Source: an uncultured Sandaracinus sp.
Lineage (GTDB): Bacteria; Myxococcota_A; Polyangia; Polyangiales; Houyiibacteriaceae
NCBI GenBank assembly: GCA_937982655.1
Contig: CALJLK010000352.1
Coordinates: 1-60,976, forward strand
Direction: 5' to 3'
Length of the DNA: 60,976 nucleotides
Positions within the stretch are counted from its first letter, which is position 1. The number at the start of each line of letters is the position of its first letter. Position numbers and translations under genes: made by a program. This document shows positions 3,227 to 49,458 of this stretch, one piece after another. A model generated the notes under the pieces. That model was not told the DNA's origin and did no database searches. It worked only from the letters and a program-made list of their open reading frames with translations.

Positions 3227-3958
3227 ATGCGCACTTCGTATCTCCTCTACTGCTTGGGGCTTCTCTGCGTCCTCGGTTGCCCGACCTCGACCACCGTCGT
3301 CGACTGTGGCGATGGGGGCTCATACAGCGAGGACGACGTTGGGCGGTACTGCAGCTACATCGTGGTCCGCGGAGGGTTCACGTGCCCGCCCGCCCTCGCC
3401 AACGCGGTTCCGGTCGGAACCGGGATGGTGTGTACCGACTTGCGCGAGCCGACGCCCGAGCGTCTGCCTCCCACGGCCTGCGAGGGACTCGACGATCCAC
3501 GCTGTGGCACCGCGAGTCGCGCGTGCGCCGGGCCAACGCGCGAGACCGAGTACCTCAGCTGTTCGCCTGGCTTTCCCGATCCTGCGTTTCCCCCGGGGGA
3601 GTGGACTCGCGATCTGCTCGACGTCGACACGGAGCTCGCGCTCGAGGACGGCGATCGACTGGTGGTCGGTACGCAGCCCGATGGCTCGCTCGGTGCGAGC
3701 GTGGCGATGCGCACGGAAGGGGCGGGCTTCGTGTGCAGCTTCATCGAGATCGCGGCCATCGGCTCGGATGGCTCGGAGGTCCAGACCATCATCGGCTCGG
3801 CGCTGACCTCGCGCAGTGATGCCGGGCCGGGGGGGTCGCGCTACGTCTTCACGTTCGGAGTCCCCGGGCTCGGGCCGACGGTCGTTCGTGTGTCGTTCTT
3901 GGGGATCTCCGGCGCGCTCCAGGTTTGGGAGCGTGAGCTCGAGCTGATCTGCGAGTGA
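3227..3958 (+). CDS. Hypothetical lipoprotein
   Basis: The internal ATG of the 2492-3958 ORF gives MRTSYLLYCLGLLCVLGC (lipobox). Downstream composition is normal; the upstream part of the ORF is Arg/Ala junk. Confidence 0.7.
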   Translation: MRTSYLLYCLGLLCVLGCPTSTTVVDCGDGGSYSEDDVGRYCSYIVVRGGFTCPPALANAVPVGTGMVCTDLREPTPERLPPTACEGLDDPRCGTASRACAGPTRETEYLSCSPGFPDPAFPPGEWTRDLLDVDTELALEDGDRLVVGTQPDGSLGASVAMRTEGAGFVCSFIEIAAIGSDGSEVQTIIGSALTSRSDAGPGGSRYVFTFGVPGLGPTVVRVSFLGISGALQVWERELELICE

Positions 3959-3975
3959 GTGGGCTTCTGGGCGGA

Positions 3976-4145
3976 GTCGGCGGGGCCCGACTTCTCGACC
4001 GCGTCGGCGGGATCAGCCGCCGACTTGGGTCCGCCGCCGACTTCTCGACCGCGTCGGCGGGGTCAGCCGCCGACTTTTCTCGACCGCGTCGGCGGGGTCA
4101 GCCGCCGACTTCTTGGCCGGGTCGGCGGGGTCCGCCGCCGACTTG
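3976..4145 (+). repeat. Tandem array of the palindromic repeat (4 full + 2 partial units)
   Basis: Full palindromes GTCGGCGG(G)(G/A)TC(A)GCCGCCGAC start at 4003, 4053, 4088 and 4121. Each is followed by TTCTCGACCGC-like tails, so the canonical unit is 33 bp. The array is intergenic. Confidence 0.9.
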
Positions 4146-4195
4146 CGGAGGGCGCGCCGAGCCCGCATCGCTCCGAGGTGACCTCGCCCCTGGAG

Positions 4196-4912
4196 ATGCG
4201 GCTGCGCGTCCTCGCGCTCCTCGCCGAGCCGATGCTCGAGCTCGCGCGGACCTCGGCGCTGCAGCTCGACGACCTTCGTGATCTCGTCGCGACCGAGTAC
4301 TTCGAGCTCTTGCGACGACGCGGCGCGAGCTGGACCCAGATCGCGCGTCGCCTCGGAAAGAGCCGTCGCACCATCGCCGAGCTCGCGCGTCGCTCGGCTG
4401 ACCACGAACCGCTCCGCGCGCCGAGCGCACGACTCGACGTACGACGACGGATCGTGCGCGCCCTGGCGGAGGGGGAGGTGACCGTCGAAGGTCTCGCGCG
4501 GCGCGTGGGGTCACCCGCCGTCGCCGAGGAGCTGGAGGCGCTGCGGCTGGCGGGCATCGTATCCGGCCCGCCCGACGCACCCGAGCTCGCCGCGGAGCTC
4601 CTCGACTTGGTCGGCCCGGGCCTCGAAGCGCGGCTCGCGTCGCTTCGACAGTTCCTGGAGTCGGTCGCCCACGTCGTGTACGCGCGGTTCGTGCGGCCGA
4701 AGCCCGACCAGCTCGCGTTCGCGCGCGTGTGGTCCTTCTCGGCGGACGCCGAAGCTCTCGGCACGCTCGTGGAAGAGGTGTACGGACTGCTCGACCGACG
4801 CATCGCGGAGCTCGACGCCGCCGCCCGAGGCAACGACGTCCGCTCGGCGAGCGTGTCGTTCGTCGCGGTCGAACCTCCGAGCGACGAAGCCTGGCGGCAT
4901 CGACGGGGCTGA
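4196..4912 (+). CDS. Putative helix-turn-helix transcriptional regulator
   Basis: HTH-like segment ASWTQIARRLGKSRRTIAELARR plus a second winged-helix-like segment (VTVEGLARRVGSPAVAEELEALRLAGIV). The part of the ORF upstream of 4196 is the palindromic repeat array, so I moved the start to ATG 4196; that position is uncertain. Confidence 0.55.
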   Translation: MRLRVLALLAEPMLELARTSALQLDDLRDLVATEYFELLRRRGASWTQIARRLGKSRRTIAELARRSADHEPLRAPSARLDVRRRIVRALAEGEVTVEGLARRVGSPAVAEELEALRLAGIVSGPPDAPELAAELLDLVGPGLEARLASLRQFLESVAHVVYARFVRPKPDQLAFARVWSFSADAEALGTLVEEVYGLLDRRIAELDAAARGNDVRSASVSFVAVEPPSDEAWRHRRG

Positions 4913-22124: not shown

Positions 22125-23822
22125 TCATCCAACGCGGACCGACGCCCAGTCGAGGCCGAAGCGCGCGAGGTACTTCCGCAGTCGGTCCGCGTCGTTCTTG
22201 CTGGTGCGGCGCGCGAGGCTCTTGTCGAAGAGCGCTCGCCCCGCGTCCGAGAGCGTCGCGCTCTGCGCACAGACCTCGAGCACCTTCTCGAGCTGCACGC
22301 GGTCGAAGAGATCGAGCGCGTGAGCCGCTTCGCCGAGCATCGCGTCCACCCGCGAGGTCCCGCTCGCCTCGCCCTCACCCCACGTCGCGCGCAGCCGCGC
22401 GATCTCGTCGTCGACCTCGACCTTCCGGATGCGGCCGCTCGGCGCGAGGGTCGCCATGCGCGCGACCGCGGCGCCGAGGTCGCGAAAGTTGTGGGTCCAC
22501 TTCGCATCCCCGCTGGTGGCGAAGCGCAGGAACGCGAGGCGCGCGTCGGTCGTGAAGGTCACGCGGCGGTCGGTCTGTCGCGCGAAGCGCTCGAGCTCGA
22601 AGTCGAGGTTCGGCTCGAGGTCGGCGAGCCGCTCGCGCAGGGTCGGCAGCCGGAAGTGCCAGAGGCAGATGCGCGCGAGGAGGTCTTCGCGAAAGCGCCC
22701 TTCCCGCACCTGCGCGAAGAGATCGCGGTTGGTGCCCGCGATGAGCTGGAAGTCGCTCTGCACCGGGCGATCCGCGCCGAGCGGCACGAAGCGTTTGTCT
22801 TCGATCGCCGTCAGCAACATCGCCTGCTCGTCGAGCCCGAGCTCGCCGATCTCGTCGAGGAAGACCACGCCGCCGTCCGCGCTCTGCAGCACGCCGCGAC
22901 GCTTGGCGTGCGCGCCGGTGAAGGCGCCGCGCTCGTGCCCGAAGAGGGTCGACATCGCGTGGTCGCCACGCAGCGTCGCGCAGTTCACCTCGACGAAGGT
23001 CTTGCTGCTCTGCCCGCGCTCGGACTTGAGGGCGTGGATGCGGCGGGCGAGCTGGGTCTTGCCGACGCCGGTGGGTCCCGAGAGCAGGATGGGCGCGCGC
23101 GAGCTCTCGGCGACGCGCTCGATGCGATCGATGAGCGTATTGAATCCAGGATCGCGCGTCGTGATCCCGGCTTTGAGAAAGCCGGTACGCACCTCGCGCT
23201 CGGCCTCGAAGCGTCGCGCGATGCGCTCGTAGCGCGCGAGGTCGAGGTCGATGATCGAGCAAGTCGAGCGCGGCTCGTCCGCTTCGCGCGCGGAGCGGTC
23301 CGGACCCGTGCGAGGCGGCGGGGAGGTCTGAAGCAACGCGCCGGGGAAGAAGCCGTTCTCGGTGAGGAGAAACAGGCAGATCTGCGCGACGTGCGTGCCC
23401 GTCGTGAGGTGCACGAGGTAGCGCTCGCGCTCGGGATCGAAGGGGTAGTCGCGCGCGAAGGCGTGGAGCGCCTCGTAGACCTCTTCGAAGTCCCACGGGT
23501 CCTTCACGTCGAAGTCGCGCCGACGAAAGTCGGTCTCCGGCGAAAGACGCGCTGCGTCTTCGAGAAACACTCGCAGATCCTCGTTTGGTCGACAGAGGAG
23601 CTCGAAGCGAGAGATCAGCAGATCGTCTTGTTGGAGCAGCCCGAGCGAGGGGCGCCAACGCTTCCAACGCTGCGCACCCTTCGGGGAGTCGAGGGTGGTG
23701 CCGTAGAAGCCGATCACCACCACGGGTCGAGGATCGTTCGTCACGCTCGCCAATCGTTCGACGTCGCGGACGGCTCGCTCGCAGGCTCCCCGCCGCACGC
23801 CATCGGGATCCAGACGACGCAC
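22125..23822 (-). CDS. rtcR: Sigma-54-dependent transcriptional regulator RtcR (CARF-like N-terminal domain + AAA+ + HTH)
   Basis: It is collinear with my recollection of E. coli RtcR (RWKRWRPSL..., HLTTGTHVAQICLFLL, IIDLDLARY, Walker A GPTGVGKT, FGHERGAFTGA, NDADRLRKYLARFGL). The ortholog alignment suggests the true start may be GTG 23744 (VTNDPRPVVVIGFYG). Confidence 0.9.
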   Translation of the reverse strand: MRRLDPDGVRRGACERAVRDVERLASVTNDPRPVVVIGFYGTTLDSPKGAQRWKRWRPSLGLLQQDDLLISRFELLCRPNEDLRVFLEDAARLSPETDFRRRDFDVKDPWDFEEVYEALHAFARDYPFDPERERYLVHLTTGTHVAQICLFLLTENGFFPGALLQTSPPPRTGPDRSAREADEPRSTCSIIDLDLARYERIARRFEAEREVRTGFLKAGITTRDPGFNTLIDRIERVAESSRAPILLSGPTGVGKTQLARRIHALKSERGQSSKTFVEVNCATLRGDHAMSTLFGHERGAFTGAHAKRRGVLQSADGGVVFLDEIGELGLDEQAMLLTAIEDKRFVPLGADRPVQSDFQLIAGTNRDLFAQVREGRFREDLLARICLWHFRLPTLRERLADLEPNLDFELERFARQTDRRVTFTTDARLAFLRFATSGDAKWTHNFRDLGAAVARMATLAPSGRIRKVEVDDEIARLRATWGEGEASGTSRVDAMLGEAAHALDLFDRVQLEKVLEVCAQSATLSDAGRALFDKSLARRTSKNDADRLRKYLARFGLDWASVRVG

Positions 23823-24051: not shown

Positions 24052-26007
24052 TCAGCGCAAGGGCTCCGCGCTCCGCACGATCCCGAGCCCGAAGACCGTC
24101 AGCATGAGTCGATCGGTCGGATCGACGTGCGCGCGAACGTCGAACACCGGCGCGGCGGGCACGGGCTCGTCGTCGGCCGTCGGCACGCCGATCGCGGCCC
24201 AGCGCTCCGCGGCGCGGCGGAAGAGCCAGACGTCGAGGACGGTGCGCGTCATGCCCGACGGGAGGTCCGATGCGACGAAGCCGGCGGCCACGAGATCGTC
24301 GCGCGACGTCGTGGCGATGGGCAGGTACGCGACCTCGGCGGTCGTTCCGCCGCCGATCTGGACCCACGTGCGGCCCGCGTCGTCCGAGCGGCTCGGGTAG
24401 GTGTCGATGGTGTTGCAGTCCGATCCGATCGGGAAGTAGCTCGTGCTGTGGCCGAAGATCACGCCGTCGCTCGTGGCGGCAACGGGGACGTGATCGAGGA
24501 AGCCGTCGACCACGACTGCGCCTTCGGAGTCGACCAGCGCACCCCCGGGAGGCAAACGGCTCCACGTCGCACCGTCGTCCACGCTCTCGAGGAGCGTGCC
24601 GGTGCACCCTTCGCGCATGTACGCGAGCAGCCGATCCGGCAGCGCCACGAGCCGCTCGACGCTCGCGTCGCCCGAAAGGAGAACGGGCTCTCCCCACGTC
24701 GCGCCGCCGTCCTCCGAGAAGACGAGCGAAGGTGTGCGGTCTCCGGCGACCGTGGTCGCATACGCGAGGCGTCCCGCGCCGACGTCGAAGAGATCGACCG
24801 CTCCTGGGAGCTCACGCTCCCACGTCCACGCGCGCTGGCCGGGGCGGAAACGAAGCTGGTCGTTGCCCACCACGGCCACGAGCTCGCCGCTCGCGAGCGG
24901 GACCGCTCGAAGGAGGCCACCACCGGCCTCGTTCGAGACGCGCGCGAGCAACATCTCGACCTCTCCGTCCTCGCGCACCACGAGGGTCGGACCGCGGGTC
25001 TCGTCGGAGAGGTAGACCTCGTCGCCGCGGAGATACGCGCGGGTGCGTGGGATCTCCGCGTCGAGGAACGAACGCCAGGTGCGGCCGTCGTCGTCGGAGC
25101 GGAGACGGCTCTTCGGGAAGGTGAGCGTTCCGTCGGGGAGGATCTCGAAGTCCATCCAGTCGACGTCGGGGCCGGGGTTCGGGCCGATGGTCTCGTAGGT
25201 CGCACCGCCGTCGTAGGAGGCGACGGTGTTCGGGCCCTGGACGATCAACACGTTCCCCGCACGCGTGATCCACACGGGGTTGAGATCCCCGAGAGCGCCA
25301 CCGAGCCCCATCGGCACCGCCGGACCCTCGGACCAAGTCTGACCGCCGTCGACGCTCGTGTGGAAACCGAAGCGCGTCACCACGACGAGACCCGCGTCGG
25401 TCGAGTGCAGAGAGGCTCGGAAGCGCAGCGGCTCGTACGTCGTCGCGAGCGTCGGCAACGTCTCCCACTCGGCGTCTGGATCGGAGAGGTCGAGCCGGAA
25501 GAAGTAACCCACCGAGCGTTCGTCCGAGATGCTGCCGCCCTCAGTGATCTCCTCGACGAAGTGGTAGAGGAAACCGTCGTGGACGGCCCAGCCGCTGAGG
25601 TCGTCGCGCTCGCCGGAGAGGTTGCGGAAGGTGCCGGCCTCGAGGTCGGCGAGGGTGAAGGCGTTCAGCCCCGTCCGCACCACGCCGGTGGTGTCGCTCA
25701 GGAACACGAAGTCGGCGGGCAGGCGCCCCTCGGGTACGAGCTCGATCGCGCGCCACGTCGCGCGTCGGTCGAAGCTCACGTAGCGGTTGATCACCACGGT
25801 GTCTCCGCGAGTCCAGACCGCACGCACGATCGGGGTCAGGCCGTGTGGAGGTGGCGCGACCGATTCGAACGCGACCGGCTCAGGCTCGCGGGTGCCAGGC
25901 AACACCTCGTCGTCGTCGCCCCCGCAACCCAGGCCGAGGACGCCCGCGAGGAGCGTCGAAGCCAAGAGGGAACCGAGGATTCCGGGCCGGTCGAGCCTTC
26001 GAGCCAT
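24052..26007 (-). CDS. BNR/Asp-box repeat beta-propeller lipoprotein
   Basis: Lipobox LLAGVLGLGC. Six Asp-boxes are present (SVDGGQTWS, SYDGGATYE, SDDDGRTWR, SEDGGATWG, SVDDGATWS, SDDAGRTWV). Confidence 0.85.
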   Translation of the reverse strand: MARRLDRPGILGSLLASTLLAGVLGLGCGGDDDEVLPGTREPEPVAFESVAPPPHGLTPIVRAVWTRGDTVVINRYVSFDRRATWRAIELVPEGRLPADFVFLSDTTGVVRTGLNAFTLADLEAGTFRNLSGERDDLSGWAVHDGFLYHFVEEITEGGSISDERSVGYFFRLDLSDPDAEWETLPTLATTYEPLRFRASLHSTDAGLVVVTRFGFHTSVDGGQTWSEGPAVPMGLGGALGDLNPVWITRAGNVLIVQGPNTVASYDGGATYETIGPNPGPDVDWMDFEILPDGTLTFPKSRLRSDDDGRTWRSFLDAEIPRTRAYLRGDEVYLSDETRGPTLVVREDGEVEMLLARVSNEAGGGLLRAVPLASGELVAVVGNDQLRFRPGQRAWTWERELPGAVDLFDVGAGRLAYATTVAGDRTPSLVFSEDGGATWGEPVLLSGDASVERLVALPDRLLAYMREGCTGTLLESVDDGATWSRLPPGGALVDSEGAVVVDGFLDHVPVAATSDGVIFGHSTSYFPIGSDCNTIDTYPSRSDDAGRTWVQIGGGTTAEVAYLPIATTSRDDLVAAGFVASDLPSGMTRTVLDVWLFRRAAERWAAIGVPTADDEPVPAAPVFDVRAHVDPTDRLMLTVFGLGIVRSAEPLR

Positions 26008-26328: not shown

Positions 26329-27591
26329 ATGGACACGCGCGACTACGACGTGATGACGACCCCGGACGGCGGCCTCGTGAAGATGTGGACCCGTGGGGTG
26401 GTGGTGGAGGACGCGGCGCGCGCGCAGCTCGCGAACGTCGCGTCGTTGCCCTTCATCCACAAGTGGGTCGCGGTGATGCCTGACGTGCACTGGGGCATGG
26501 GCGCGACGGTCGGCTCCGTGATCCCGACGAAGCAGGCGATCGTGCCGGCCGCGGTCGGTGTGGATCTCGGCTGCGGGATGATGGCAGTGAAGACCTCGCT
26601 GCGCGCCGAGCACCTGCCCGACGATCTGAAGGGCGTGCGCTCGGCGATCGAGGCCGCGGTGCCGCACGGCCGCACGCTCTCGCGATCGACGAAGCGCGAT
26701 CGCGGCGCGTGGGGTGAGCCGCCGGACGTCGTGGCGGACGTGTGGGCGCGCAAGCTCGCGGCCGAGTTCGCGGTGCTCTGCGACAAGCACCCGAAGCTCG
26801 CGCAGAGCAACCACGTGACGCACCTCGGAACCCTCGGGACGGGGAACCACTTCATCGAGCTCTGCCTCGACGAGGCGGGCGATGTGTGGGTGATGTTGCA
26901 CTCCGGCTCGCGTGGGGTCGGGAACCGCATCGGCTCCTACTTCATCGAGCTCGCGAAGGAGGACATGCGCACGTGGCACGTGAACCTTCCGGACGAGGAC
27001 CTCGCGTACTTGCCCGAGGGTACGTCGCACTTCGACGACTACGTCGAGGCGGTGGATTGGGCGCAGCGCTTCGCGCGTGAGAACCGCGAGGTGATGATGC
27101 GCGCGACGCTCGCCGCGCTCCGCAAGGTGCTCGGCGACGGCTCGACCCGGTCGGCGGGGTCAGCCGCCGACTTCACGACGGCGGACGTGGCGGTGAACTG
27201 CCACCACAACTACGTCGCGAAGGAGCACCACTACGGCGCCGACGTGTGGGTGACCCGCAAGGGCGCGGTGCGCGCGGGCGCGGGTGAGCTCGGCATCATC
27301 CCGGGGTCGATGGGAACGCGTTCCTACATCGTCCGCGGGAAGGGAAACGCCGAGAGCTTCTGCTCCTGCTCGCACGGCGCGGGTCGCGCGATGAGCCGCG
27401 GGGAGGCGAAGCGGCGCTTCACCCTCGAGGACCACGCGAAGGCGACCGCGGGGATCGAGTGCCGCAAGGACGAGGACGTGATCGACGAGACGCCGATGGC
27501 CTACAAGGACATCGACGCCGTCATGGCCGCGCAGGCCGACCTGGTCGACGTGGTGTACGTGCTGCGCCAGGTGGTGTGCGTGAAGGGATGA
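26329..27591 (+). CDS. rtcB: RNA 3'-phosphate ligase RtcB
   Basis: Start at MDTRDYDV, with GGAGA 9-13 nt upstream. Hallmark motifs are MPDVHWGMG, GTLGTGNHFIE, NCHHNY and FCSCSHGAGR, with C-terminus RQVVCVKG. It is collinear with E. coli RtcB. Confidence 0.95.
   Translation: MDTRDYDVMTTPDGGLVKMWTRGVVVEDAARAQLANVASLPFIHKWVAVMPDVHWGMGATVGSVIPTKQAIVPAAVGVDLGCGMMAVKTSLRAEHLPDDLKGVRSAIEAAVPHGRTLSRSTKRDRGAWGEPPDVVADVWARKLAAEFAVLCDKHPKLAQSNHVTHLGTLGTGNHFIELCLDEAGDVWVMLHSGSRGVGNRIGSYFIELAKEDMRTWHVNLPDEDLAYLPEGTSHFDDYVEAVDWAQRFARENREVMMRATLAALRKVLGDGSTRSAGSAADFTTADVAVNCHHNYVAKEHHYGADVWVTRKGAVRAGAGELGIIPGSMGTRSYIVRGKGNAESFCSCSHGAGRAMSRGEAKRRFTLEDHAKATAGIECRKDEDVIDETPMAYKDIDAVMAAQADLVDVVYVLRQVVCVKG
27147..27174 (+). 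repeat. Palindromic repeat copy inside the rtcB coding sequence (in frame)
   Basis: GTCGGCGGGGTCAGCCGCCGAC at 27150-27171 has 8-bp arms and a 6-nt loop. It is translated as TRSAGSAADFTT. Confidence 0.9.
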
Positions 27592-27775: not shown

Positions 27776-29908
27776 TCAGAGCGCCAGACGCACGCGGCTC
27801 TCTTCGCCCGCGCGGATCGTGACGACGTGCCGACGCTCGGGCTTGCCGGGTGCGCGCAGCGTGAGCGTGTGTCGGCCCGCGGGGAGCGAGACGTTCGTGA
27901 AGGGCGTGGTGCCGAGCTTGCGGCGGCCGAGAAAGACGTCGCACCAGGGCGTGGTGGCCATCGCGAGGGTGCCGGTGCCGCGCGGCGTGACGACGGGATT
28001 GCGCGGACGCGCCTCGCGTCGAAGCACGGCGGAGAACGTGGCGACCCCACCTTCGAGCGCGAGCACGGGCGCTTCGTGCTCTTGGTATCCGTCGAGCCGC
28101 AGCGTGACCACGTGCTCGCCCGGCGCGACCCCGACGTCGAGCGGCGTGCGACCGACGCGCTCTTCGCCGACGAGCACCACCGCGCCGCTCGGCTCGCTCA
28201 CCACGCGCAGCCGCGCATCCCTCGTGCGCGCTTGAAGCAGCACGTCGACCTCCGTCGCAGCCGCGACCTCGAGCGTGCGCGACGCGACGACGCGCCCTTC
28301 GTCGAGCGCCTCCACCACGTGCGGCCCCGGCTCCACCGCGAGCCGCAGCGGCGCCGGGCCGTGCTCGATGTCGTCGATGCGCAGCGCGAGCCCGGCTGGC
28401 TCGGTGGTGATGCGCAGATGCGCTGGTCGTGTCGGGAGCCGCTCGACGACGGGTCGGTCCGGTTCCGTCGGGAGCTCGAGTGGTGGAGGCGTTGTGTCGT
28501 CGGGGGTGCGGAAGACGAGCCAGGAGAGCACCCCCGCGATTGGAACGAGGAGGAATGGAGCCCACCGCCACGCGCGACGCGAGCGCGGCGGCGGCGCGAC
28601 CGAGGGCACCTTCTGCGTGACCGCGACCGGTACGTTCGTGGACCACGGTGGTGATGCGCTCGACGACGCGCTCGACGACGCGCTCGACGACGCGCTCGAC
28701 GACGCGCTCGACGACGGCGTGAGCCCGCTCCGCGACACCGGCGAGAGCGCGCTCGACTCGCGCAGATCGCGAAATCCCGCCGCGAACGTCGGATCCACTG
28801 GCGTGTCCGAGAAGCTCGCCTCGCCGCGCGGCGGTGTTCCGTCGAGCAACGCGGTGCCGACCGACGGTGGGGCGATCGGCGCGGTGCCGGGCGGCCCGTT
28901 CGGCGTGACCACGCCCGTGAGCGGCACGGTGCCGGCTGCGCGCGGACCGCGACGATCTTCTTCGACGACGTCGGGGAAGAGCCGCCGCACGTAGCGCCCG
29001 AGCTCGAGCGTGTCCGAGGGCTCCGGTACTGCGCGCAGGAACCGTTCGAGGTCCGCGCGCAACGCGAGCGCGTCCGGGTAGCGGTCCTCACGCCGCGCCG
29101 CGAGCGCGCGTGTCGCGATCTCGCGCAGCCCCGGCGGCAACATCTGCAGCCGCTCCGGCTCGGGGATCTTCCCCGCGGCGGCGAGCGTGCGCGCGTGCAA
29201 CGGGTCCTCGTGCGGGAAGAGCGTGTCTCCGGTGAGCACCTCGAAGAGCAGGATGCCGACGTTGAAGAGATCGCTTCGTCGATCGAGCGACTCGCCGCGC
29301 GCTTGTTCCGGCGAGAGGTACGCGGACTTGCCGCGCACCATGCCGACCCGCGTGATCTCCTTGCGGCCTCGCTGCAGCTTCGCGACGCCGAAGTCCGCCA
29401 CCTTCACCGCGCCCTCGAAGCCGAGGAGCACGTTCGACGGCGTGACGTCGCGGTGCACGAGCCCGAGCGGTCGCCCGCGCGCGTCCGAAAGATCGTGCGC
29501 GTGCGCGAGCCCCTCGCAGACGTGCGAGAGGATCTTCGCCGCGTGATGCATCGGCACCGCGCCGGGCCGTCGCGCCGCCATCGCCTGCTCGCGCGCGCGC
29601 ACGATCAGCGCGCGCAGATCGACCCCTCGCACGAGCTCCATCACGAGGTACGCGGTGCCCCCGACCTCGCCGAAGTCGTACACGTGCACGACGTTCGGGT
29701 GACCGAGGCGCGCGACGATGCGCGCCTCCTCGCGGAACATCGCCATCAGCTCCGGATCTTCGGAGAGATGCGGGAGGATGCGCTTGACCACGAGATCGCG
29801 CGCGAATCCTTCGGGTCCTTCCTTACGCGCGAGGAAGATCTCGGCCATGCCGCCCTTGGCGAGGCGACGAACGAGCACGTAAGGGCCGAGCGGCACTCCA
29901 GCGGCCAC
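27776..29908 (-). CDS. Ser/Thr protein kinase with C-terminal TM segment and three PEGA domains
   Basis: Hanks kinase motifs are present: GGMAEIFLA...VVKRI, HRDVTPSNVLL, VADFGVAK and YLSPEQ. A low-complexity linker is followed by a TM segment (WAPFLLVPIAGVLSWLVF) and then PEGA-like repeats (TTEPAGLALRIDD, VSEPSGAVVLVGEERVGRTPL, PWCDVFLGRRKLGTTPF). Confidence 0.9.
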   Translation of the reverse strand: MAAGVPLGPYVLVRRLAKGGMAEIFLARKEGPEGFARDLVVKRILPHLSEDPELMAMFREEARIVARLGHPNVVHVYDFGEVGGTAYLVMELVRGVDLRALIVRAREQAMAARRPGAVPMHHAAKILSHVCEGLAHAHDLSDARGRPLGLVHRDVTPSNVLLGFEGAVKVADFGVAKLQRGRKEITRVGMVRGKSAYLSPEQARGESLDRRSDLFNVGILLFEVLTGDTLFPHEDPLHARTLAAAGKIPEPERLQMLPPGLREIATRALAARREDRYPDALALRADLERFLRAVPEPSDTLELGRYVRRLFPDVVEEDRRGPRAAGTVPLTGVVTPNGPPGTAPIAPPSVGTALLDGTPPRGEASFSDTPVDPTFAAGFRDLRESSALSPVSRSGLTPSSSASSSASSSASSSASSSASPPWSTNVPVAVTQKVPSVAPPPRSRRAWRWAPFLLVPIAGVLSWLVFRTPDDTTPPPLELPTEPDRPVVERLPTRPAHLRITTEPAGLALRIDDIEHGPAPLRLAVEPGPHVVEALDEGRVVASRTLEVAAATEVDVLLQARTRDARLRVVSEPSGAVVLVGEERVGRTPLDVGVAPGEHVVTLRLDGYQEHEAPVLALEGGVATFSAVLRREARPRNPVVTPRGTGTLAMATTPWCDVFLGRRKLGTTPFTNVSLPAGRHTLTLRAPGKPERRHVVTIRAGEESRVRLAL
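28654..28713 (-). repeat. 12-bp coding microsatellite (GCGCTCGACGAC x5) encoding (SSSA)5 in the kinase linker
   Basis: Five perfect head-to-tail copies. They are read on the minus strand as SSSASSSASSSASSSASSSA. Confidence 0.9.
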
Positions 29909-30670: not shown

Positions 30671-32692
30671 TCACGAGCTCAGCTCGTCGGGCAGATCGTC
30701 GGGCAGGTCGTCGTCCGGGTCGTCGACCCACGCCGAGAGGTGCGCGCCGTCGTTCTCGGCATGCTCGAGGAACGCCGCGTAGAACGCGTGGCTCGCGAGG
30801 GTGGCTCCGTCGCCGACCACGAGGAGGAAGCGGCGCGCGCGCGTGATCGCGACGTTCATGCGGCGTACGTCCGCGAGGAAGCCGACCTCGCCGCGATCGT
30901 TGCTGCGCACGAGGTCGACCACGACCGCTTCCTTCTCGCGACCTTGGAAGCCGTCGACCGTGCCGACTTCGAGGCCTTCGCGCCGAAGCTCGACGAGCAA
31001 ACCGCGCAGCACGCGCGCTTGCGCTTCGTAGGGTGTGATCACCGCGATGTCTCTCGGCATCACGCCGCGCCGCACGAGGCGCTTCACCTCCGCCGCGACG
31101 CGCTCCGCTTGGCCGGGGTTGCGCGTGCTCGGGTCGTCGTCGCTGCGCTCCTCTTCCCAGCCACGGCCCGCCGCGTCGACGAAGAGCCACGGCGCATCGC
31201 GCGTGGGGTCGGGACGCACACCGAGGTCTTCGAGGCGATGCGTGGCGACCTCGGGTGCGGCGACCAATCGACCTTCGTAGAAGCGCTCCGACGGGAAGCG
31301 CATGATCGCCTCGTGCATGCGGTGCTGCACGAGCAGCATTCGGCCGAGCGCGCCGCGGCCGGAGTCGTCGGCTGACCCCGGCGACTCGTCGGCTCCGTCG
31401 GTCGAGTCTCCGTCGAGCAAGCGCTCGAAGAACGTGGTGCCGAGCCCTTCGCGCGCGACGCTCGGCTCGATCACGGTCGGCGGGAGCTGACGCGGATCGC
31501 CGGCGAGCACCGCGATCGGCGCGCGGCGCAGGGCCGCGAGCGCGAGCGGATCGAGGGCCTGGGTGGCCTCGTCGAGCACCACACGATCGAAACGCTCGGA
31601 GTCGAGCCGATGCTCGGCCGCGCCCGCGAGGGTCGCGCAGACCACCCGCGCGCGCTCGAACACTCGTTTCTCGGCGCCGCGGAGGTGACCGCGCGCGTCC
31701 TTGAGGAGCCGCCACGCTTCGTTCTGCATCGCGCGGCGCTCGTCGCGATCGAGCGCGCTCCGTCGCGCGGCCTTTCGTCGAAGCTGCGCGGCCTCGCGGC
31801 TCCATTGCCGCGCGAGCGTATGCTCTTCGCTCGCGTCGACCTGCGCGTCGAGGGTCACCGACTCGAGCGCCTCCGCGACACGCGCGGGATGGCCCATGCG
31901 CACGAGCGGCACCGACGCCGCGACGAGGCGCTCGGCGAGGTTGTCGACCGCGGTGTGGCTCGCCGCGCACACGAGCACACGCTCGCCACGCGCGACCGCC
32001 TGCCGCACGATCTCGGCGAGCGTGCGCGTCTTGCCGGTGCCGGGCGGACCGTGCACGAGCGACACCACGCGCCCGCCGAACGCGAGCTCGACCGCTTCGC
32101 GCTGCGGGGCGTTCAACCCTTCGTCGAACCAGGTCTCGATCCGGTGCACGCGCGCCCGGCTCACGCGCGCCGTCTCGCCCGCGAGCAACACGTCGCGCAG
32201 CTCGGACAGCTCGCTCTTGGCGTCGACGTCCTTCCAGCGCCGCAGCGCGCGGTCGCCGACGTCGAAGGTCGCCTCCGGCGCCTCGAGATCGAGGCGAAAG
32301 CTCCCCTCGAAGAGTCGATCGGGCACGTCGGCGTCGACCACGAGCGTGAGCTGCGCACCGGGCCGCCGCGCGATCACCGCGCGAACGCTCGAGTCCGGCT
32401 TGGGCTCGTCCCACCACAACAACACCGGCGCGCCGGGCCGGAGCGCGAGGTCGTCCGGGTCGACCCCCTTCGGATAGCTCACGATCAGGCGCGTGCGATC
32501 GCCGGGCGCGGCTTCGGTGTCCTCGACCTCGAGCCCATCGAGCGCCGTGCCTCGCGCGACGCGCTCCGCGAAGGTTCGGCGCGTGCGCTCCTCCGCGAAA
32601 CGCGCGCGGTGGGCCTGACGCTCACGTGCCCAGAGCGTGCGCAGGCGCTCGAGCGCCTCGCCCGCGCGCTCGGCCGGCGATCGCGGGATCAT
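30671..32692 (-). CDS. Superfamily-1 helicase, Upf1/IGHMBP2 (DNA2/NAM7)-like
   Basis: Walker A is GPPGTGKT, motif II is VVLDEATQA. Further motifs are LAGDPRQLPPTV, VDGFQGREKE and NVAITRARR. Confidence 0.9.
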   Translation of the reverse strand: MIPRSPAERAGEALERLRTLWARERQAHRARFAEERTRRTFAERVARGTALDGLEVEDTEAAPGDRTRLIVSYPKGVDPDDLALRPGAPVLLWWDEPKPDSSVRAVIARRPGAQLTLVVDADVPDRLFEGSFRLDLEAPEATFDVGDRALRRWKDVDAKSELSELRDVLLAGETARVSRARVHRIETWFDEGLNAPQREAVELAFGGRVVSLVHGPPGTGKTRTLAEIVRQAVARGERVLVCAASHTAVDNLAERLVAASVPLVRMGHPARVAEALESVTLDAQVDASEEHTLARQWSREAAQLRRKAARRSALDRDERRAMQNEAWRLLKDARGHLRGAEKRVFERARVVCATLAGAAEHRLDSERFDRVVLDEATQALDPLALAALRRAPIAVLAGDPRQLPPTVIEPSVAREGLGTTFFERLLDGDSTDGADESPGSADDSGRGALGRMLLVQHRMHEAIMRFPSERFYEGRLVAAPEVATHRLEDLGVRPDPTRDAPWLFVDAAGRGWEEERSDDDPSTRNPGQAERVAAEVKRLVRRGVMPRDIAVITPYEAQARVLRGLLVELRREGLEVGTVDGFQGREKEAVVVDLVRSNDRGEVGFLADVRRMNVAITRARRFLLVVGDGATLASHAFYAAFLEHAENDGAHLSAWVDDPDDDLPDDLPDELSS

Positions 32693-33359: not shown

Positions 33360-33546
33360 CGCGGCGCAGGGTAGCAGATGGTTCGGTCGCGCCCGGAACG
33401 AGGACGTGGCTTCGCTGACCCTCGTGGGCGAGTCGTCGTGATCGTCGGCAACGTTCACGATCGTGGTCGTGGTCGTCGTTCTCGTGGTCGGCGACTTGAA
33501 CGGTGAGGCGTGTGCGAGGAGCTCGGCTTCGTCGTTCACGTCGCAG

Positions 33547-33648
33547 TCGCCGTTCTCGTCGCCGTTCTCGTCGCCGTTCTCGTCGCCGTTCTCGTCGACG
33601 TTCTCGTCGACGTTCTCGTCGACGTTCTCGTCGACGTTCTCATCGACG
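33547..33648. repeat. 12-bp tandem repeat, about 8.5 copies in two subtypes
   Basis: TCGCCGTTCTCG x4 is followed directly by TCGACGTTCTCG x4 and a partial unit. The array is intergenic, lying between the infA stop and the thioredoxin-lipoprotein start. Confidence 0.9.
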
Positions 33649-33679
33649 TGAGCTTCGACGATCGGCACTTCCGAAGGGC

Positions 33680-41046: not shown

Positions 41047-43017
41047 GTGCCCTTGCTCGTCGCCCGCGGACTACAGAAATCGTTCGGACCGCGCGTCCTC
41101 CTCGACGGGGTCGACCTCTCGCTCGAAGAAGGCCGCCGCGTCGGGCTCGTCGGCGTGAACGGCAGCGGGAAGTCGACCCTCGCGCGAATCCTCGCGACGG
41201 GCGCTAGCTCCGGCACCGACGCGAGCACGGAGCTGCGCCGACGCGACGAGGACGCCGACTCCGGTGAGGTCATCCTGCGCAACGGCGCAGTGGTTGCGTA
41301 CCTCGCGCAAGAGCCGCGCTTCGCCCCCGGACGCACCGCGGGCGAGGTGGTGCGCGAAGGGCTCGCGGCGTGGGAGGCCGCGCGTCGTCGCCACGACGAG
41401 GCGACGCATGCGCTGACGGAGGGACGTGGCGATCTCGAGGCCGCGCTCGCGATGCAGGCCGAAGCCGCAGCGGAGGTCGAGCACCTCGGTGGGTGGGACG
41501 CCGACCACGTGGTGCCCGCGGCCCTGCGCGCGCTCGGAGCGCCCGAGCCGGAGCGGGTGGTCGACGGCATGAGCGGCGGTGAGCGGCGCCGCGTCGCGCT
41601 CGCGCGGCTGCTCGTGCAGGCGCCCGATCTCGCGATCCTCGACGAGCCCACCAACCACCTCGACACCGACGCGATCGAGCAGCTCGAGAACTGGTTGCTC
41701 ACGCGCTTTCGAGGCGCGGTGCTCCTCGTCACCCACGATCGCTACTTGCTCGACCGCGTGACCGACGAGACCTGGGAGCTCGACGCCGGCAAGGTGCACG
41801 TCTACGACGGCGGCTGGAGCGCGTACCTCGAAGCGAAGGCCGAGCGCATGCTCCTCGCCGAGCGCCAGGAGTCGAACCGCCAGAACTTCCTGCGCAAAGA
41901 GCTCGATTGGCTCCGGCGCTCTCCGTCCGCGCGCAGCACCAAGCAGAAAGCGCGCATCGGTCGCGCGCACGAGGCGCTCGCCGAAGAAGGCCCGCGTCGC
42001 GAGCGTACCGCGTCGCTCTCGCTCCAGCAGACGCGCCTCGGCAAGACGATCCTCGAGCTGAAGAAGGTCGACCTGACGATCGGCGGACGCACCCTCGTGC
42101 GGCAGCTCGACTTCGTACTGCAGAAGGGCGACCGCGTCGGGATCGTGGGCCCGAACGGCGCCGGCAAGACGACCCTGCTGCGCGCGGTGACGGGCGAGCT
42201 CGCGCCCTCGTCGGGGCAGGTCGTGGTGGGCCCGAGCACACGCTTCGCGTACTTCGATCAGACGCGCAGCGGGCTCGTCGACGAGCTCTCCATCCTCGAG
42301 AACGTCGCCGACAAGAAAGAGAAGCTGACGATCGGCGATCGCACGATGGACGTGCGCACCTACCTCTCGCGTTTCCTCTTCGCGCCCGATCGCATCCGCG
42401 AGAAGGTCGGCAACCTGAGCGGCGGCGAGCGCGCGCGCGTGCGGCTCGCGCAGCTCCTGCTGGAGCCGGCGAACGTGCTCCTGCTCGACGAGCCGACGAA
42501 CGATCTCGACGTCGCGACGCTCGGCGCGCTCGAAGAGATGTTGCTCGAGAGCGACGCGACCGCGCTGGTGGTCAGCCACGATCGTTACTTCCTCGATCGG
42601 GTGTGCACCGCGATTCTGGAGATCGATCCGAAGGGCGACGGCACACCGATCCGCTGGGAAGGCAGCTACGACACCTACCGTCGGCTGAAGCAGGCGCGCG
42701 AGGTGGAGCAGGCCGGACGCGAGAAGGCGATGCGCGAAGCCTCCAAGGAGAAGACCGCCGCGGAGGCGAAGGCGAGCACGCCGCCGAAGCCGAAGGCCGG
42801 CCTCTCGTCGAAGGAGAAGCGTGAGCTCGAAGGGCTGATGGACGCGATCGAAGCGGCGGAGACCCGCATGGCGGAGCTCGACGCGGTGCTCGCGGATCCG
42901 ACGACCTACGCGATGCGCTCGGCGGAGGTCCCGAAGCTCACGGCCGATCGCGACGCAGCGCACGCGGAGGTCGAGCGGCTGATGGCGCGCTGGGAAGAGC
43001 TCGAAGCGCGGAAGTGA
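41047..43017 (+). CDS. ABC-F family ATPase (Uup/EttA-like translation/ribosome-associated ABC protein)
   Basis: Two ABC cassettes without TM domains. Walker A motifs are GVNGSGKST and GPNGAGKTT, and the signatures are MSGGERRR and LSGGERAR. It has a C-terminal coiled coil and a GTG start. Confidence 0.9.
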   Translation: MPLLVARGLQKSFGPRVLLDGVDLSLEEGRRVGLVGVNGSGKSTLARILATGASSGTDASTELRRRDEDADSGEVILRNGAVVAYLAQEPRFAPGRTAGEVVREGLAAWEAARRRHDEATHALTEGRGDLEAALAMQAEAAAEVEHLGGWDADHVVPAALRALGAPEPERVVDGMSGGERRRVALARLLVQAPDLAILDEPTNHLDTDAIEQLENWLLTRFRGAVLLVTHDRYLLDRVTDETWELDAGKVHVYDGGWSAYLEAKAERMLLAERQESNRQNFLRKELDWLRRSPSARSTKQKARIGRAHEALAEEGPRRERTASLSLQQTRLGKTILELKKVDLTIGGRTLVRQLDFVLQKGDRVGIVGPNGAGKTTLLRAVTGELAPSSGQVVVGPSTRFAYFDQTRSGLVDELSILENVADKKEKLTIGDRTMDVRTYLSRFLFAPDRIREKVGNLSGGERARVRLAQLLLEPANVLLLDEPTNDLDVATLGALEEMLLESDATALVVSHDRYFLDRVCTAILEIDPKGDGTPIRWEGSYDTYRRLKQAREVEQAGREKAMREASKEKTAAEAKASTPPKPKAGLSSKEKRELEGLMDAIEAAETRMAELDAVLADPTTYAMRSAEVPKLTADRDAAHAEVERLMARWEELEARK

Positions 43018-43170
43018 GCGCTCGAGCTCTCGCGTCGTTCACGGATCGTAGAAGAGCTCGAACGCGCATGAGCGCTCGAGCTCTCGCGTCGTTCACGGAT
43101 CGTAGAAGAGCTCGAACGCGCATGAGCGCTCGAGCTCTTCGCGTCGTTCACGGATCGTAGAAGAGCGAGT
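43016..43170. repeat. 54-bp tandem repeat (2 full units + 1 partial) spanning the junction of two convergent genes
   Basis: Units start at 43016, 43070 and 43124. Each unit contains TTCACGGATCGTAGAAGAG (the reverse complement encodes LFYDP-stop, the C-terminus of the 43148-44854 gene) and GAAGAGCTCGAACGCGCATGA (a near copy of the ABC-F 3' end GAAGAGCTCGAAGCGCGGAAGTGA). Confidence 0.9.
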
Positions 43171-46210: not shown

Positions 46211-47323
46211 GTGCGCCTCCTCCTGGCCCTCTCGTTCACTCTCTCGTTCGCGCTCCCCGCGTCCGCCCAGAGCACGGGGTCGAGCTTCGGCAGCAGCGAC
46301 TGGGGCTCGACCTCGAGCGGCGGAGACTTCTCGAGCGGCGGCGGAGACTTCTCGGCCGGGTCGGCGGGGTCAGCCGCCGACTTCTCGAGCGGTAGTTTCG
46401 GAGACTCGAGCGGAGGCAGCTCGGGCGGCGGTCCACTCTCCCCAATCGTCGGAAGTCTCCTCCTGGCCGGGTTTCTCATCGGCCTCGGATGGGCTTGGTG
46501 GAGCGCAGAACGCGAGATTCGAGAGGCGGATCCCAACCGCATCGACCCCGGCCTCATCGACGTCGCGCTCGTCTCGATCGCGTTGGGTGGCCCCGCGCGA
46601 GAGCAGCTCCAACGACGACTACCCCGCGTGGCGCGTGGCCTCGGCAGCGCACGCGCTCGCCACGACGCGCTGCGCGACGTGGTCCAAGCCCTGCGCGAAG
46701 CGAAAGACGCGTGGGTCTACGGGCGCATCGTCGACCACCTCCCGCGCGCGGCCGGTCACGCGCGTCGCGATCTCGAACGCCACGCGGCAGAGCTCCGCGC
46801 GCGCTACCGACACGAGCTCCTCCGCGGCACCGACGCTCGCGCGACCGAACGCTCGGCGCCGGAGCCCACGCCACGCGCGGAGGAAGGCGACGGGCTCGTC
46901 GTGGTCTCCCTCGTGGTCGCGGCGCGCGACACGATCGAGGACGCGCGTTCCGTCACCCTCGAACGGATCGATCGCCTGCTCCAGCGGCTCGCGGACATCC
47001 CGATCGACCGACTCGTCGCGCTCGAGGTGACGTGGTCGCCGGCGAGCGATCGCGATCGGCTCTCCAGCGCCGAGCTCGAGGTCGTCTACCCGGAGATGGT
47101 TCGCCTCGTCGATCGCCCGCTCGGGCGGGTCACGTGTGCCTCGTGTGGCGTCGTGAGCGCGGCGGAGCTCGCGTCGTGTCCGTCGTGTGGAGCGCCCCGA
47201 CCCACGGCGCCTCCGACGCCGGGACCCGCCGCCGAGGCCGCGCGCGAGGACGCATCGAAGGCGGGTGACGACGCGCCGAAGTCCCTGCGCGAGATCATGC
47301 GCGCCAAGCGTGGGTCTTCGTGA
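46211..47323 (+). CDS. DUF1517-like membrane protein with a C-terminal zinc-ribbon-like CxxC..CxxC
   Basis: A signal peptide is followed by a Gly/Ser/Asp/Phe low-complexity region and one TM helix (IVGSLLLAGFLIGLGWAWW). A soluble domain follows, with CASCG...CPSCG near the C-terminus. The family call is from memory. Confidence 0.6.
   Translation: MRLLLALSFTLSFALPASAQSTGSSFGSSDWGSTSSGGDFSSGGGDFSAGSAGSAADFSSGSFGDSSGGSSGGGPLSPIVGSLLLAGFLIGLGWAWWSAEREIREADPNRIDPGLIDVALVSIALGGPAREQLQRRLPRVARGLGSARARHDALRDVVQALREAKDAWVYGRIVDHLPRAAGHARRDLERHAAELRARYRHELLRGTDARATERSAPEPTPRAEEGDGLVVVSLVVAARDTIEDARSVTLERIDRLLQRLADIPIDRLVALEVTWSPASDRDRLSSAELEVVYPEMVRLVDRPLGRVTCASCGVVSAAELASCPSCGAPRPTAPPTPGPAAEAAREDASKAGDDAPKSLREIMRAKRGSS
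46352..46392 (+). repeat. Palindromic repeat copy inside the DUF1517-like coding sequence (in frame)
   Basis: GTCGGCGGGGTCAGCCGCCGAC lies at 46360-46381 and is read as AGSAGSAADFSS, the same frame as in rtcB. Confidence 0.9.
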
Positions 47324-49375: not shown

Positions 49376-49424
49376 CGCGCGAACGATCGATCGACGCGAC
49401 GAGCGCGCGAGAGCGCGCGAAGAA

Positions 49425-49458
49425 GTCGGCGGTTGACCCCGCCGACTCGGTCGAGAAG
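49425..49458 (-). repeat. Palindromic repeat copy (inverted orientation) in the 5' leader of the 48080-49375 gene
   Basis: The plus strand reads GTCGGCGGTTGACCCCGCCGAC-TCGGTCGAGAAG. The reverse complement is CTTCTCGACCGA-GTCGGCGGGGTCAACCGCCGAC. Confidence 0.85.

Follow-up and report, generated by a model that had tools for sequence, protein, structure and literature searches.

Rickettsia palindromic elements (RPEs) are dispersed palindromic repeats that occur both between genes and in frame in many unrelated functional genes, where the peptide that they contribute sits at places which the protein fold can accommodate (reviewed in PMC10969869; PMC1779305). Repetitive extragenic palindromes (REPs) are GC-rich palindromes of 20-40 nt with conserved stems, present in hundreds of often clustered copies (PMC3116915), and PARCELs are mobile coding tandem repeats with dyad symmetry in their DNA (PMC2996958). 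Here, we describe a short palindromic repeat found in a 60,976-nt stretch of DNA from an uncultured Sandaracinus sp. (contig CALJLK010000352.1 of assembly GCA_937982655.1; the whole stretch is hereafter the window), where one copy lies in frame within the RNA ligase gene rtcB. As regards its identity and evolutionary history, the rtcB palindrome is very probably one copy of a DNA repeat that is dispersed in a clade of uncultured Sandaracinaceae-like Myxococcota.

Like RPEs, this repeat is palindromic and is found in intergenic DNA as well as in frame in many unrelated genes, whose open reading frames (ORFs) are preserved. At 33 bp, however, it is four to five times smaller than RPEs (~100-150 bp), and while the latter inhabit obligate intracellular Rickettsia with AT-rich, reduced genomes, the present hosts are Myxococcota with 70% GC and, presumably, a large genome and a free-living lifestyle. 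Further, it forms head-to-tail arrays that expand inside genes, whereas short-period tandem arrays have not been reported for RPEs. By size, host phylum and array formation the repeat falls outside the RPE family, and its sequence has no apparent relation to RPEs. An earlier note on this DNA had likened it to an RPE residing in a surface loop of an essential protein; the likeness in behaviour stands, but RtcB is not essential.

The palindrome in rtcB, GTCGGCGGGGTCAGCCGCCGAC, has two arms of 8 bp each (GTCGGCGG and CCGCCGAC) around the 6-nt loop GGTCAG. The pattern GTCGGCGG-N5-7-CCGCCGAC is found seven times in the window, beginning at 4003, 4053, 4088, 4121, 27150, 46360 and 49425, against 0.01 occurrences expected from 100 dinucleotide-preserving shuffles of the window, none of which reached seven. 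Additionally, scans with the exact 22-mer returned at least 50 loci in genomes (one genome per species) and at least 118 loci in metagenomes from several projects, so that the over-representation suspected earlier holds well beyond the window. Among the genome matches listed, one belongs to a metagenome-assembled genome (MAG) of a Sandaracinus sp. and the other 49 to the MAG Myxococcota bacterium Prado145. Viral contigs scanned with the same 22-mer gave no match, and there is therefore no sign of carriage by phages in that set. The features of the rtcB locus are as follows.

26329..27591, plus strand: rtcB coding sequence of 420 aa, host of the insertion (ORF, PF01139)
27136..27168, plus strand: 33-bp insertion of 11 codons, residues D270-A280 (DGSTRSAGSAA), delimited by ortholog DNA and protein alignment
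27150..27171, plus strand: rtcB hairpin, perfect over 22 nt, with an 8-bp stem and the 6-nt loop GGTCAG

The gene itself is a textbook rtcB, as had been claimed: PF01139 is found on all homologues, database proteins are up to 97% identical, the product matches solved RtcB structures by sequence, and the NCHHNY motif is invariant in the alignment. Within this PF01139 protein the 22-nt palindrome at 27150-27171 is indeed in frame and is read as ..GDGSTRSAGSAADFTT.., the RtcB stretch across the insert including LGDGSTRSAGSAADF. Comparison with 117 RtcB sequences of at least 72% identity revealed the 11 extra residues in only four, namely those of the window, P0001, P0002 and P0004 (relatives 91-97% identical), while they are missing in the other 113; orthologs outside the repeat-bearing relatives thus lack the insertion, in agreement with the original suspicion. 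The nearest sequences without the insert, from Sandaracinus sp. MAGs at ~90% identity, show a clean 33-bp gap in the DNA of rtcB. In the DNA alignment the empty allele reads CTCGGT/GAGTTCGCG, with the slash at the junction, and the filled allele CTCGGC GACGGCTCGACCCGGTCGGCGGGGTCAGCCGCC GACTTCACG. Since the outgroups are without the 11 residues, the gain is placed in the ancestor of the window's clade.

The gained 33 bp consist of the hairpin together with the 11 nt that precede it on the upstream side. A frame-preserving unit of 33 bp, or 11 codons, had been proposed from the start, and both its length and its effect on the frame stand; its composition does not, as the hairpin had been combined with a downstream tail instead of the upstream 11 nt. 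The gain may equivalently be placed at 27139-27171, an ambiguity of 2-3 nt that arises because GA(C) flanks both ends. In the lineage of P0004 two stem bases have changed (GTCGTCGC) and the hairpin is broken, with the ORF and the extra residues kept.

To place the insert in the protein, we used a structural model built from the 117-sequence alignment (mean pLDDT 86.7, pTM 0.89); an earlier model from a 24-sequence alignment was too poor for use (mean pLDDT 54.8). The fold of the model agrees with the solved RtcB structures 4dwr, 1uc2 and 8odo at TM 0.75-0.78. Residues 271-280 form the block of lowest pLDDT (57) and are modelled as a coil that joins the helix 233-268 to the strand 284-292, which bears NCHHN. 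The position between a helix and the NCHHNY motif, as first read from the sequence, is therefore the one that the model predicts, and the insertion appears to have made the coil between helix 233-268 and the NCHHN strand 11 residues longer. From its low-confidence coil conformation, the insert would be situated in a surface loop. In HMMER alignments, archaeal and Thermus RtcB vary in length at the insertion point.

The surroundings of rtcB also differ among relatives. In the window, rtcR (22138-23741, minus strand) is parted from rtcB by an extra gene of 651 aa with BNR/Asp-box repeats (24052-26007), while in the relatives L051, L053 and L055 the gene immediately upstream of rtcB is rtcR. In L051 and L053, rtcB is followed by an RTC cyclase gene, and none is found there in the window or in L055. 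Additionally, the RtcB of P0003 (JGI) is 100% identical to that of the window over 93% of its length but differs at the C-terminus (window 27500-27591), which is consistent with a frameshift, either as an assembly error or as a real variant of another sample.

The remaining copies in the window comprise one array, two single units and one candidate relic.

3964..4146, plus strand: tandem array in non-coding or leader DNA, with full hairpins at 4003, 4053, 4088 and 4121
~3976-3991 and ~4028-4046, plus strand: two truncated units, part of the array 3964..4146
46346..46381, plus strand: single unit in the DUF1517 gene 46211..47323, in frame (..DFSAGSAGSAADFSS..), read as SAGSAADF
49420..49458, minus strand: single unit in opposite orientation, loop GGTCAA, between two minus-strand genes
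31363..31392, minus strand: candidate decayed copy GTCGCCGGGGTCAGCCGACGAC from an nhmmer profile search, marginal at E=0.012

All three further sites that had been pointed out beside the one in rtcB were recovered. The tandem array at 3976-4145 has a 33-bp period according to Tandem Repeats Finder and is flanked by the stop of the upstream gene (3958) and by a helix-turn-helix regulator gene (~4199-4912); its hairpins are spaced by 50, 35 and 33 bp, which shifts the frame, and it is therefore not a coding repeat. The copy at 46360 shares the reading frame of the rtcB copy in an unrelated gene and sits in the Gly/Ser-rich N-terminal region of the DUF1517 protein; its orthologue is present in the MAG Prado145 (L009). 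The inverted copy at 49425 is bordered by the stop of a DUF2804 gene (49525) on one side and, on the other, by the probable start (~49375) of the next gene on the minus strand. Finally, the marginal match at 31363-31392 is read in frame as ..DESPGSADD.. (..DGADESPGSADDS..) in a superfamily 1 helicase gene (30671..32692) and falls between the Pfam domains AAA_11 and AAA_12; it is possibly, on weak evidence, an old decayed in-frame copy.

The wider family was characterised from 216 clusters among the matches listed, covering 1.33 Mb from one MAG and several metagenomes. Based on the aligned copies, the repeat unit is 33 bp long and consists of (C)GAC, an 11-nt linker and the 22-nt hairpin ending in CGAC, which is usually followed by TTC. 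The linker has the consensus TTCTCGACCGA and is highly variable, with a second type that starts with GGnTCC, and the 67 clusters of Prado145 hold 60 distinct linkers; the idea of a few master donor linkers is thus unsupported, although the sampling is thin. The hairpin is near-invariant, with 271 identical 22-mers including the wobble positions, a conservation that is overestimated because the sample was ascertained on the exact 22-mer and hence on a perfect hairpin. Two compensatory stem variants retain perfect pairing, GTCCGCGG..CCGCGGAC in 12 copies and GTCGGCCG..CGGCCGAC in three copies. Both of these (L059, L145, L084 and other loci) alter wobble-wobble pairs in the favoured reading frames described below and are synonymous on both strands; the probability that two stem variants fall only on wobble positions by chance is ~0.14.

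Clusters are either single units or direct, same-strand, head-to-tail arrays, with a spacing of 33 bp in 79 of 89 cases and of 30 bp in four. The 30-bp period, which is likewise a multiple of three, is seen in arrays at metagenome loci including L064 and L074. Orthologous arrays differ in their number of units (5 vs 2, 6 vs 1 and 3 vs 2), and the largest in-frame example is an 11-unit array at L111 (6879-7230), which contributes 121 aa of KSAADP[AT]DSGN to a 421-aa ORF resembling FAD/NAD(P) disulfide oxidoreductases. A single hairpin at L083 (9416) has its loop flipped relative to its flanks, the only such copy among ~270; the orthologue at L042 (160-214, 97% flank identity) carries two normal units.

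To determine how the repeat relates to genes, each cluster was classed as coding or non-coding from its flanks alone, using our own codon-usage score trained on the long ORFs of the sampled loci and no annotation; 189 of the 216 clusters were evaluable, orthologous loci of related genomes being counted more than once in the combined statistics. Sixty-one clusters (32%) are ORF-internal, their two flanks sharing one coding frame that no stop interrupts, ~13 further clusters are read through at C-termini and ~40 lie in an open frame at 5' ends, while at least half of all clusters either are non-coding or disrupt the frame. In the first sample of 63 clusters, 19 (30%) were ORF-internal, compared with 57% when positions were drawn at random and put through this classifier (p=3e-5). 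The repeat is therefore under-represented in gene interiors, as expected if selection removes many insertions.

The internal copies are strongly skewed in frame, as had been suspected for copies in coding sequences: 30 of the 61 use frame +1, 21 frame -0, seven frame +2, two frame +0 and one frame -2, while frame -1, which holds a stop, is used by none. Frames +1 and -0, giving SAGSAAD and SAADPAD, respectively, together account for 51 of the 61, and in the first sample alone the skew has a binomial p of ~1e-6. These two frames encode FSTESAGSAAD on one strand and KSAADPADSVE on the other, both made up of small hydrophilic residues, and in them the codon score of the unit is highest and host-like, with 91% GC at third codon positions. 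According to Pfam, the hosts are genuine, conserved genes of ordinary kinds; among them are those for a DPP-IV peptidase, an EamA transporter, a biotin carboxylase, a sigma-54 activator and MazG, and further those for Fe-S/NAD oxidoreductases, a CPBP protease, a phosphoenolpyruvate (PEP) carboxylase and an ABC ATPase. Most genic insertions fall between Pfam domains, and the surviving genic copies are located in loops, inter-domain linkers and protein termini. An orthologue of the biotin carboxylase copy (L027) was not found in the window.

The PEP carboxylase gene offers a second comparison of homologues. An N-terminal array of three units (33 aa) is present in Prado145 and P0121 and missing in P0122, whereas Prado145 and P0122, but not P0121, carry an internal insertion that runs in the opposite orientation; the two thus vary independently among relatives that are ~88% identical.

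As the period equals 11 codons, insertion into a gene keeps the frame, and this indicates that the inserts are translated. The alternative of excision and religation at the RNA level, which comes to mind because RtcB itself is an RNA ligase, was set aside because the copies are biased in frame, because none uses the frame with a stop and because the ORF persists even where the hairpin is broken.

The same frame bias could be taken to mean that selection acts on the peptide, in which case a flexible linker peptide would have spread between genes by recombination and the DNA palindrome would be a by-product. The two dominant frames with their Ser/Ala/Gly/Asp-rich peptides, the in-frame arrays of up to 121 aa within enzymes and the synonymous nature of both stem variants in these frames would all suit such a module. 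It is nevertheless highly improbable, since copies are identical in nucleotides even at the wobble positions, a large share of clusters is non-coding or frame-breaking, as in the array 3964-4146, and real genes also contain copies in frames +2 and +0. The nucleotide identity and the many non-coding copies rule out a module that acts purely at the peptide level.

A role of the hairpin itself for the host was also considered, as a terminator, an mRNA-stabilising stem or a protein-binding site that is kept by selection, with genic copies being incidental. In this regard, the 45-nt RNA stretch holding the rtcB hairpin folds at -19.9 kcal/mol, arrays as RNA fold at z-scores of -2.7 to -4.3 relative to shuffled controls, the stem is conserved with compensatory variants, and one array unit scores as terminator-like with a T-rich tail. 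That unit is, however, the only such unit in 3700-4400, the sole region scanned. Intrinsic terminators combine a GC-rich hairpin with a U-run downstream of genes, whereas the repeat has the consensus tail TTCTCG without a U-run and is encountered more often in gene interiors or close to 5' ends than at 3' ends, which makes a terminator role a poor fit. Copies are further found in both orientations, one lineage has kept the rtcB ORF although its hairpin there has decayed (GTCGTCGC), and presence, absence and copy number differ among close relatives. In a comparison of the window with Rfam, no family attained its gathering score. We consider a function for the host an improbable explanation for the repeat.

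The most direct view on how copies arise comes from pairs of filled and empty orthologs. Six independent pairs were available (rtcB, L012/L116, L017/L151, L031/L100, L084/L031 and L163/L101), all of which differ by exactly 33 bp and carry GA(C/G) at the junction. In these pairs, one flanking 11-mer equals the empty target and the other matches it at 5-8 of 11 positions. For the 3 nt after GAC, upstream and downstream flanks match at 0.65-0.73 within a locus compared with 0.41 between loci, and no excess is seen beyond these positions. Since only one 11-mer matches the target and the excess does not extend past 3 nt, duplication of a target of fixed length is unsupported, and the classical 11-bp target-site duplication is ruled out by the flank identities and the filled/empty pairs. 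These alignments show that copies originate when precisely one 33-bp period is inserted at a GA(C/G) site and that they then grow and shrink as head-to-tail arrays.

The repeat hints at a route of spread that requires no transposase. The explanation that we tentatively prefer, and to which we give a nearly even chance, is microhomology-guided copying of one repeat period without an element-specific transposase. In this scheme, a growing DNA strand whose end reads ..GAC, often ..GACTTC, would switch template to a repeat elsewhere in the genome, copy one 33-nt period and thereby again end in ..GAC(TTC), and then re-anneal at the site it had left, adding 33 bp. The stable hairpin might promote the stalling and slippage that start the template switch.

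Several points weigh against our reading of the repeat as a whole. We infer the mechanism of mobility from the compared alleles, and the pair L163/L101 fits a template switch only in a different register. Translation of the inserts is likewise deduced from the preservation of the frame. The sample was ascertained on the exact 22-mer, orthologs were counted repeatedly and genes were called with our own classifier. Moreover, the combination of an invariant hairpin and very variable linkers also fits a hairpin-recognising protein that cuts at a fixed distance.

The latter observation leads to a realistic, if doubtful, alternative, namely a non-autonomous element resembling REPs or MITEs (miniature transposable elements with inverted repeats) that is moved in trans by a transposase of the REP-associated (RAYT) or IS200 type, with HUH chemistry, or by another hairpin-binding nuclease. 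An enzyme that recognises the 22-nt hairpin and cuts at a fixed distance would produce constant 33-bp units with variable linkers, and it would account for the compensatory stem variants, which keep pairing intact. The repeat also resembles REPs as a short GC-rich palindrome of high copy number with a conserved stem, and REP and REPIN families are tied to RAYT transposases (PMC3116915). However, tblastn detected no RAYT or IS200 TnpA in the 1.33 Mb around the 216 clusters, a weak test given its approximate queries and partial genomes. REPs are mainly extragenic, whereas at least 32% of the clusters studied here are inside ORFs and more are at ORF termini. Further, REPINs and bacterial interspersed mosaic elements (BIMEs) are inverted or alternating, REPINs typically being inverted doublets, while the present arrays are direct. 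There is also no perfect target duplication of fixed length, as MITEs would have, and the co-variation of the 3 nt after GAC suits microhomology better than a fixed cut site. The 8-nt arms do qualify as MITE-like terminal inverted repeats, which is trivially true of any palindrome, and the size of 22-33 bp is below the usual MITE range of 50-500 bp.

As regards array dynamics, the repeat resembles minisatellites. Minisatellites, or variable number tandem repeats, such as the mycobacterial interspersed repetitive units (MIRUs), form head-to-tail arrays whose copy number varies among close relatives and whose units are multiples of three. The present repeat has the same kind of arrays and copy-number differences between close relatives. 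MIRUs are longer, are intergenic and have no perfect-hairpin core, and they are not known to seed single units inside many enzymes. The small dispersed repeats of cyanobacteria described by Elhai et al. in 2008 are reportedly ~21-27 nt long, often palindromic and mobile without encoding a protein, and are said to occur in coding and non-coding DNA; they would resemble the repeat in being small palindromes in both kinds of DNA alike, in another lineage and with another sequence.

Dyad symmetry is shared with PARCELs, and in both cases the two strands can therefore encode similar peptides. PARCELs, however, are amphipathic domains of 25 residues that lie in ORFs without a known function and are spread by horizontal transfer, whereas here 11-codon insertions are found in housekeeping enzymes and in intergenic DNA. 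Searches of the literature turned up no account of the repeat from Sandaracinus or any other myxobacterium.

A more far-reaching proposal is that the element is a transposase-free, self-seeding hairpin minisatellite adapted to life within coding sequence. It is suggested by the 33-nt period, which equals 11 codons, by the pairing of wobble with wobble positions in the favoured frames, through which the stem can co-vary synonymously, and by the benign, linker-like peptides; we regard it as rather unlikely. If true, such a minisatellite would keep supplying the housekeeping enzymes of a free-living bacterium with insertions of up to 121 aa in loops, linkers and tails.

In-frame colonisation of genes by palindromic repeats is usually called a peculiarity of Rickettsia and is credited to small populations and relaxed selection. 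Our results document behaviour like that of RPEs in a GC-rich, Sandaracinus-like lineage, presumably one with a free-living lifestyle and a large genome. The clean filled and empty alleles in rtcB, ppc and other genes represent a natural system for studying the movement of very short repeats that code for nothing of their own, and they also bear on the tolerance and fixation of loop and linker insertions by proteins and on whether such repeats give rise to new linker or tail sequence. As a practical consequence, gene callers and alignment-based annotation will be misled by the repeats in this clade, and so will MAG assembly, many copies being located at contig ends.

The window additionally contains tandem repeats other than those of this family. 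The longest period was found in an unrelated repeat at 42994-43166 (54 bp, 3.1 copies, 95% matches), and shorter ones are located at 33546-33649 (12 bp x 8.7), 28656-28716 (12 bp x 5.1) and 1-98 (24 bp x 4.1). The repeat at 28656-28716 lies within a Ser/Thr kinase ORF and translates as a run of SSSA repeats.

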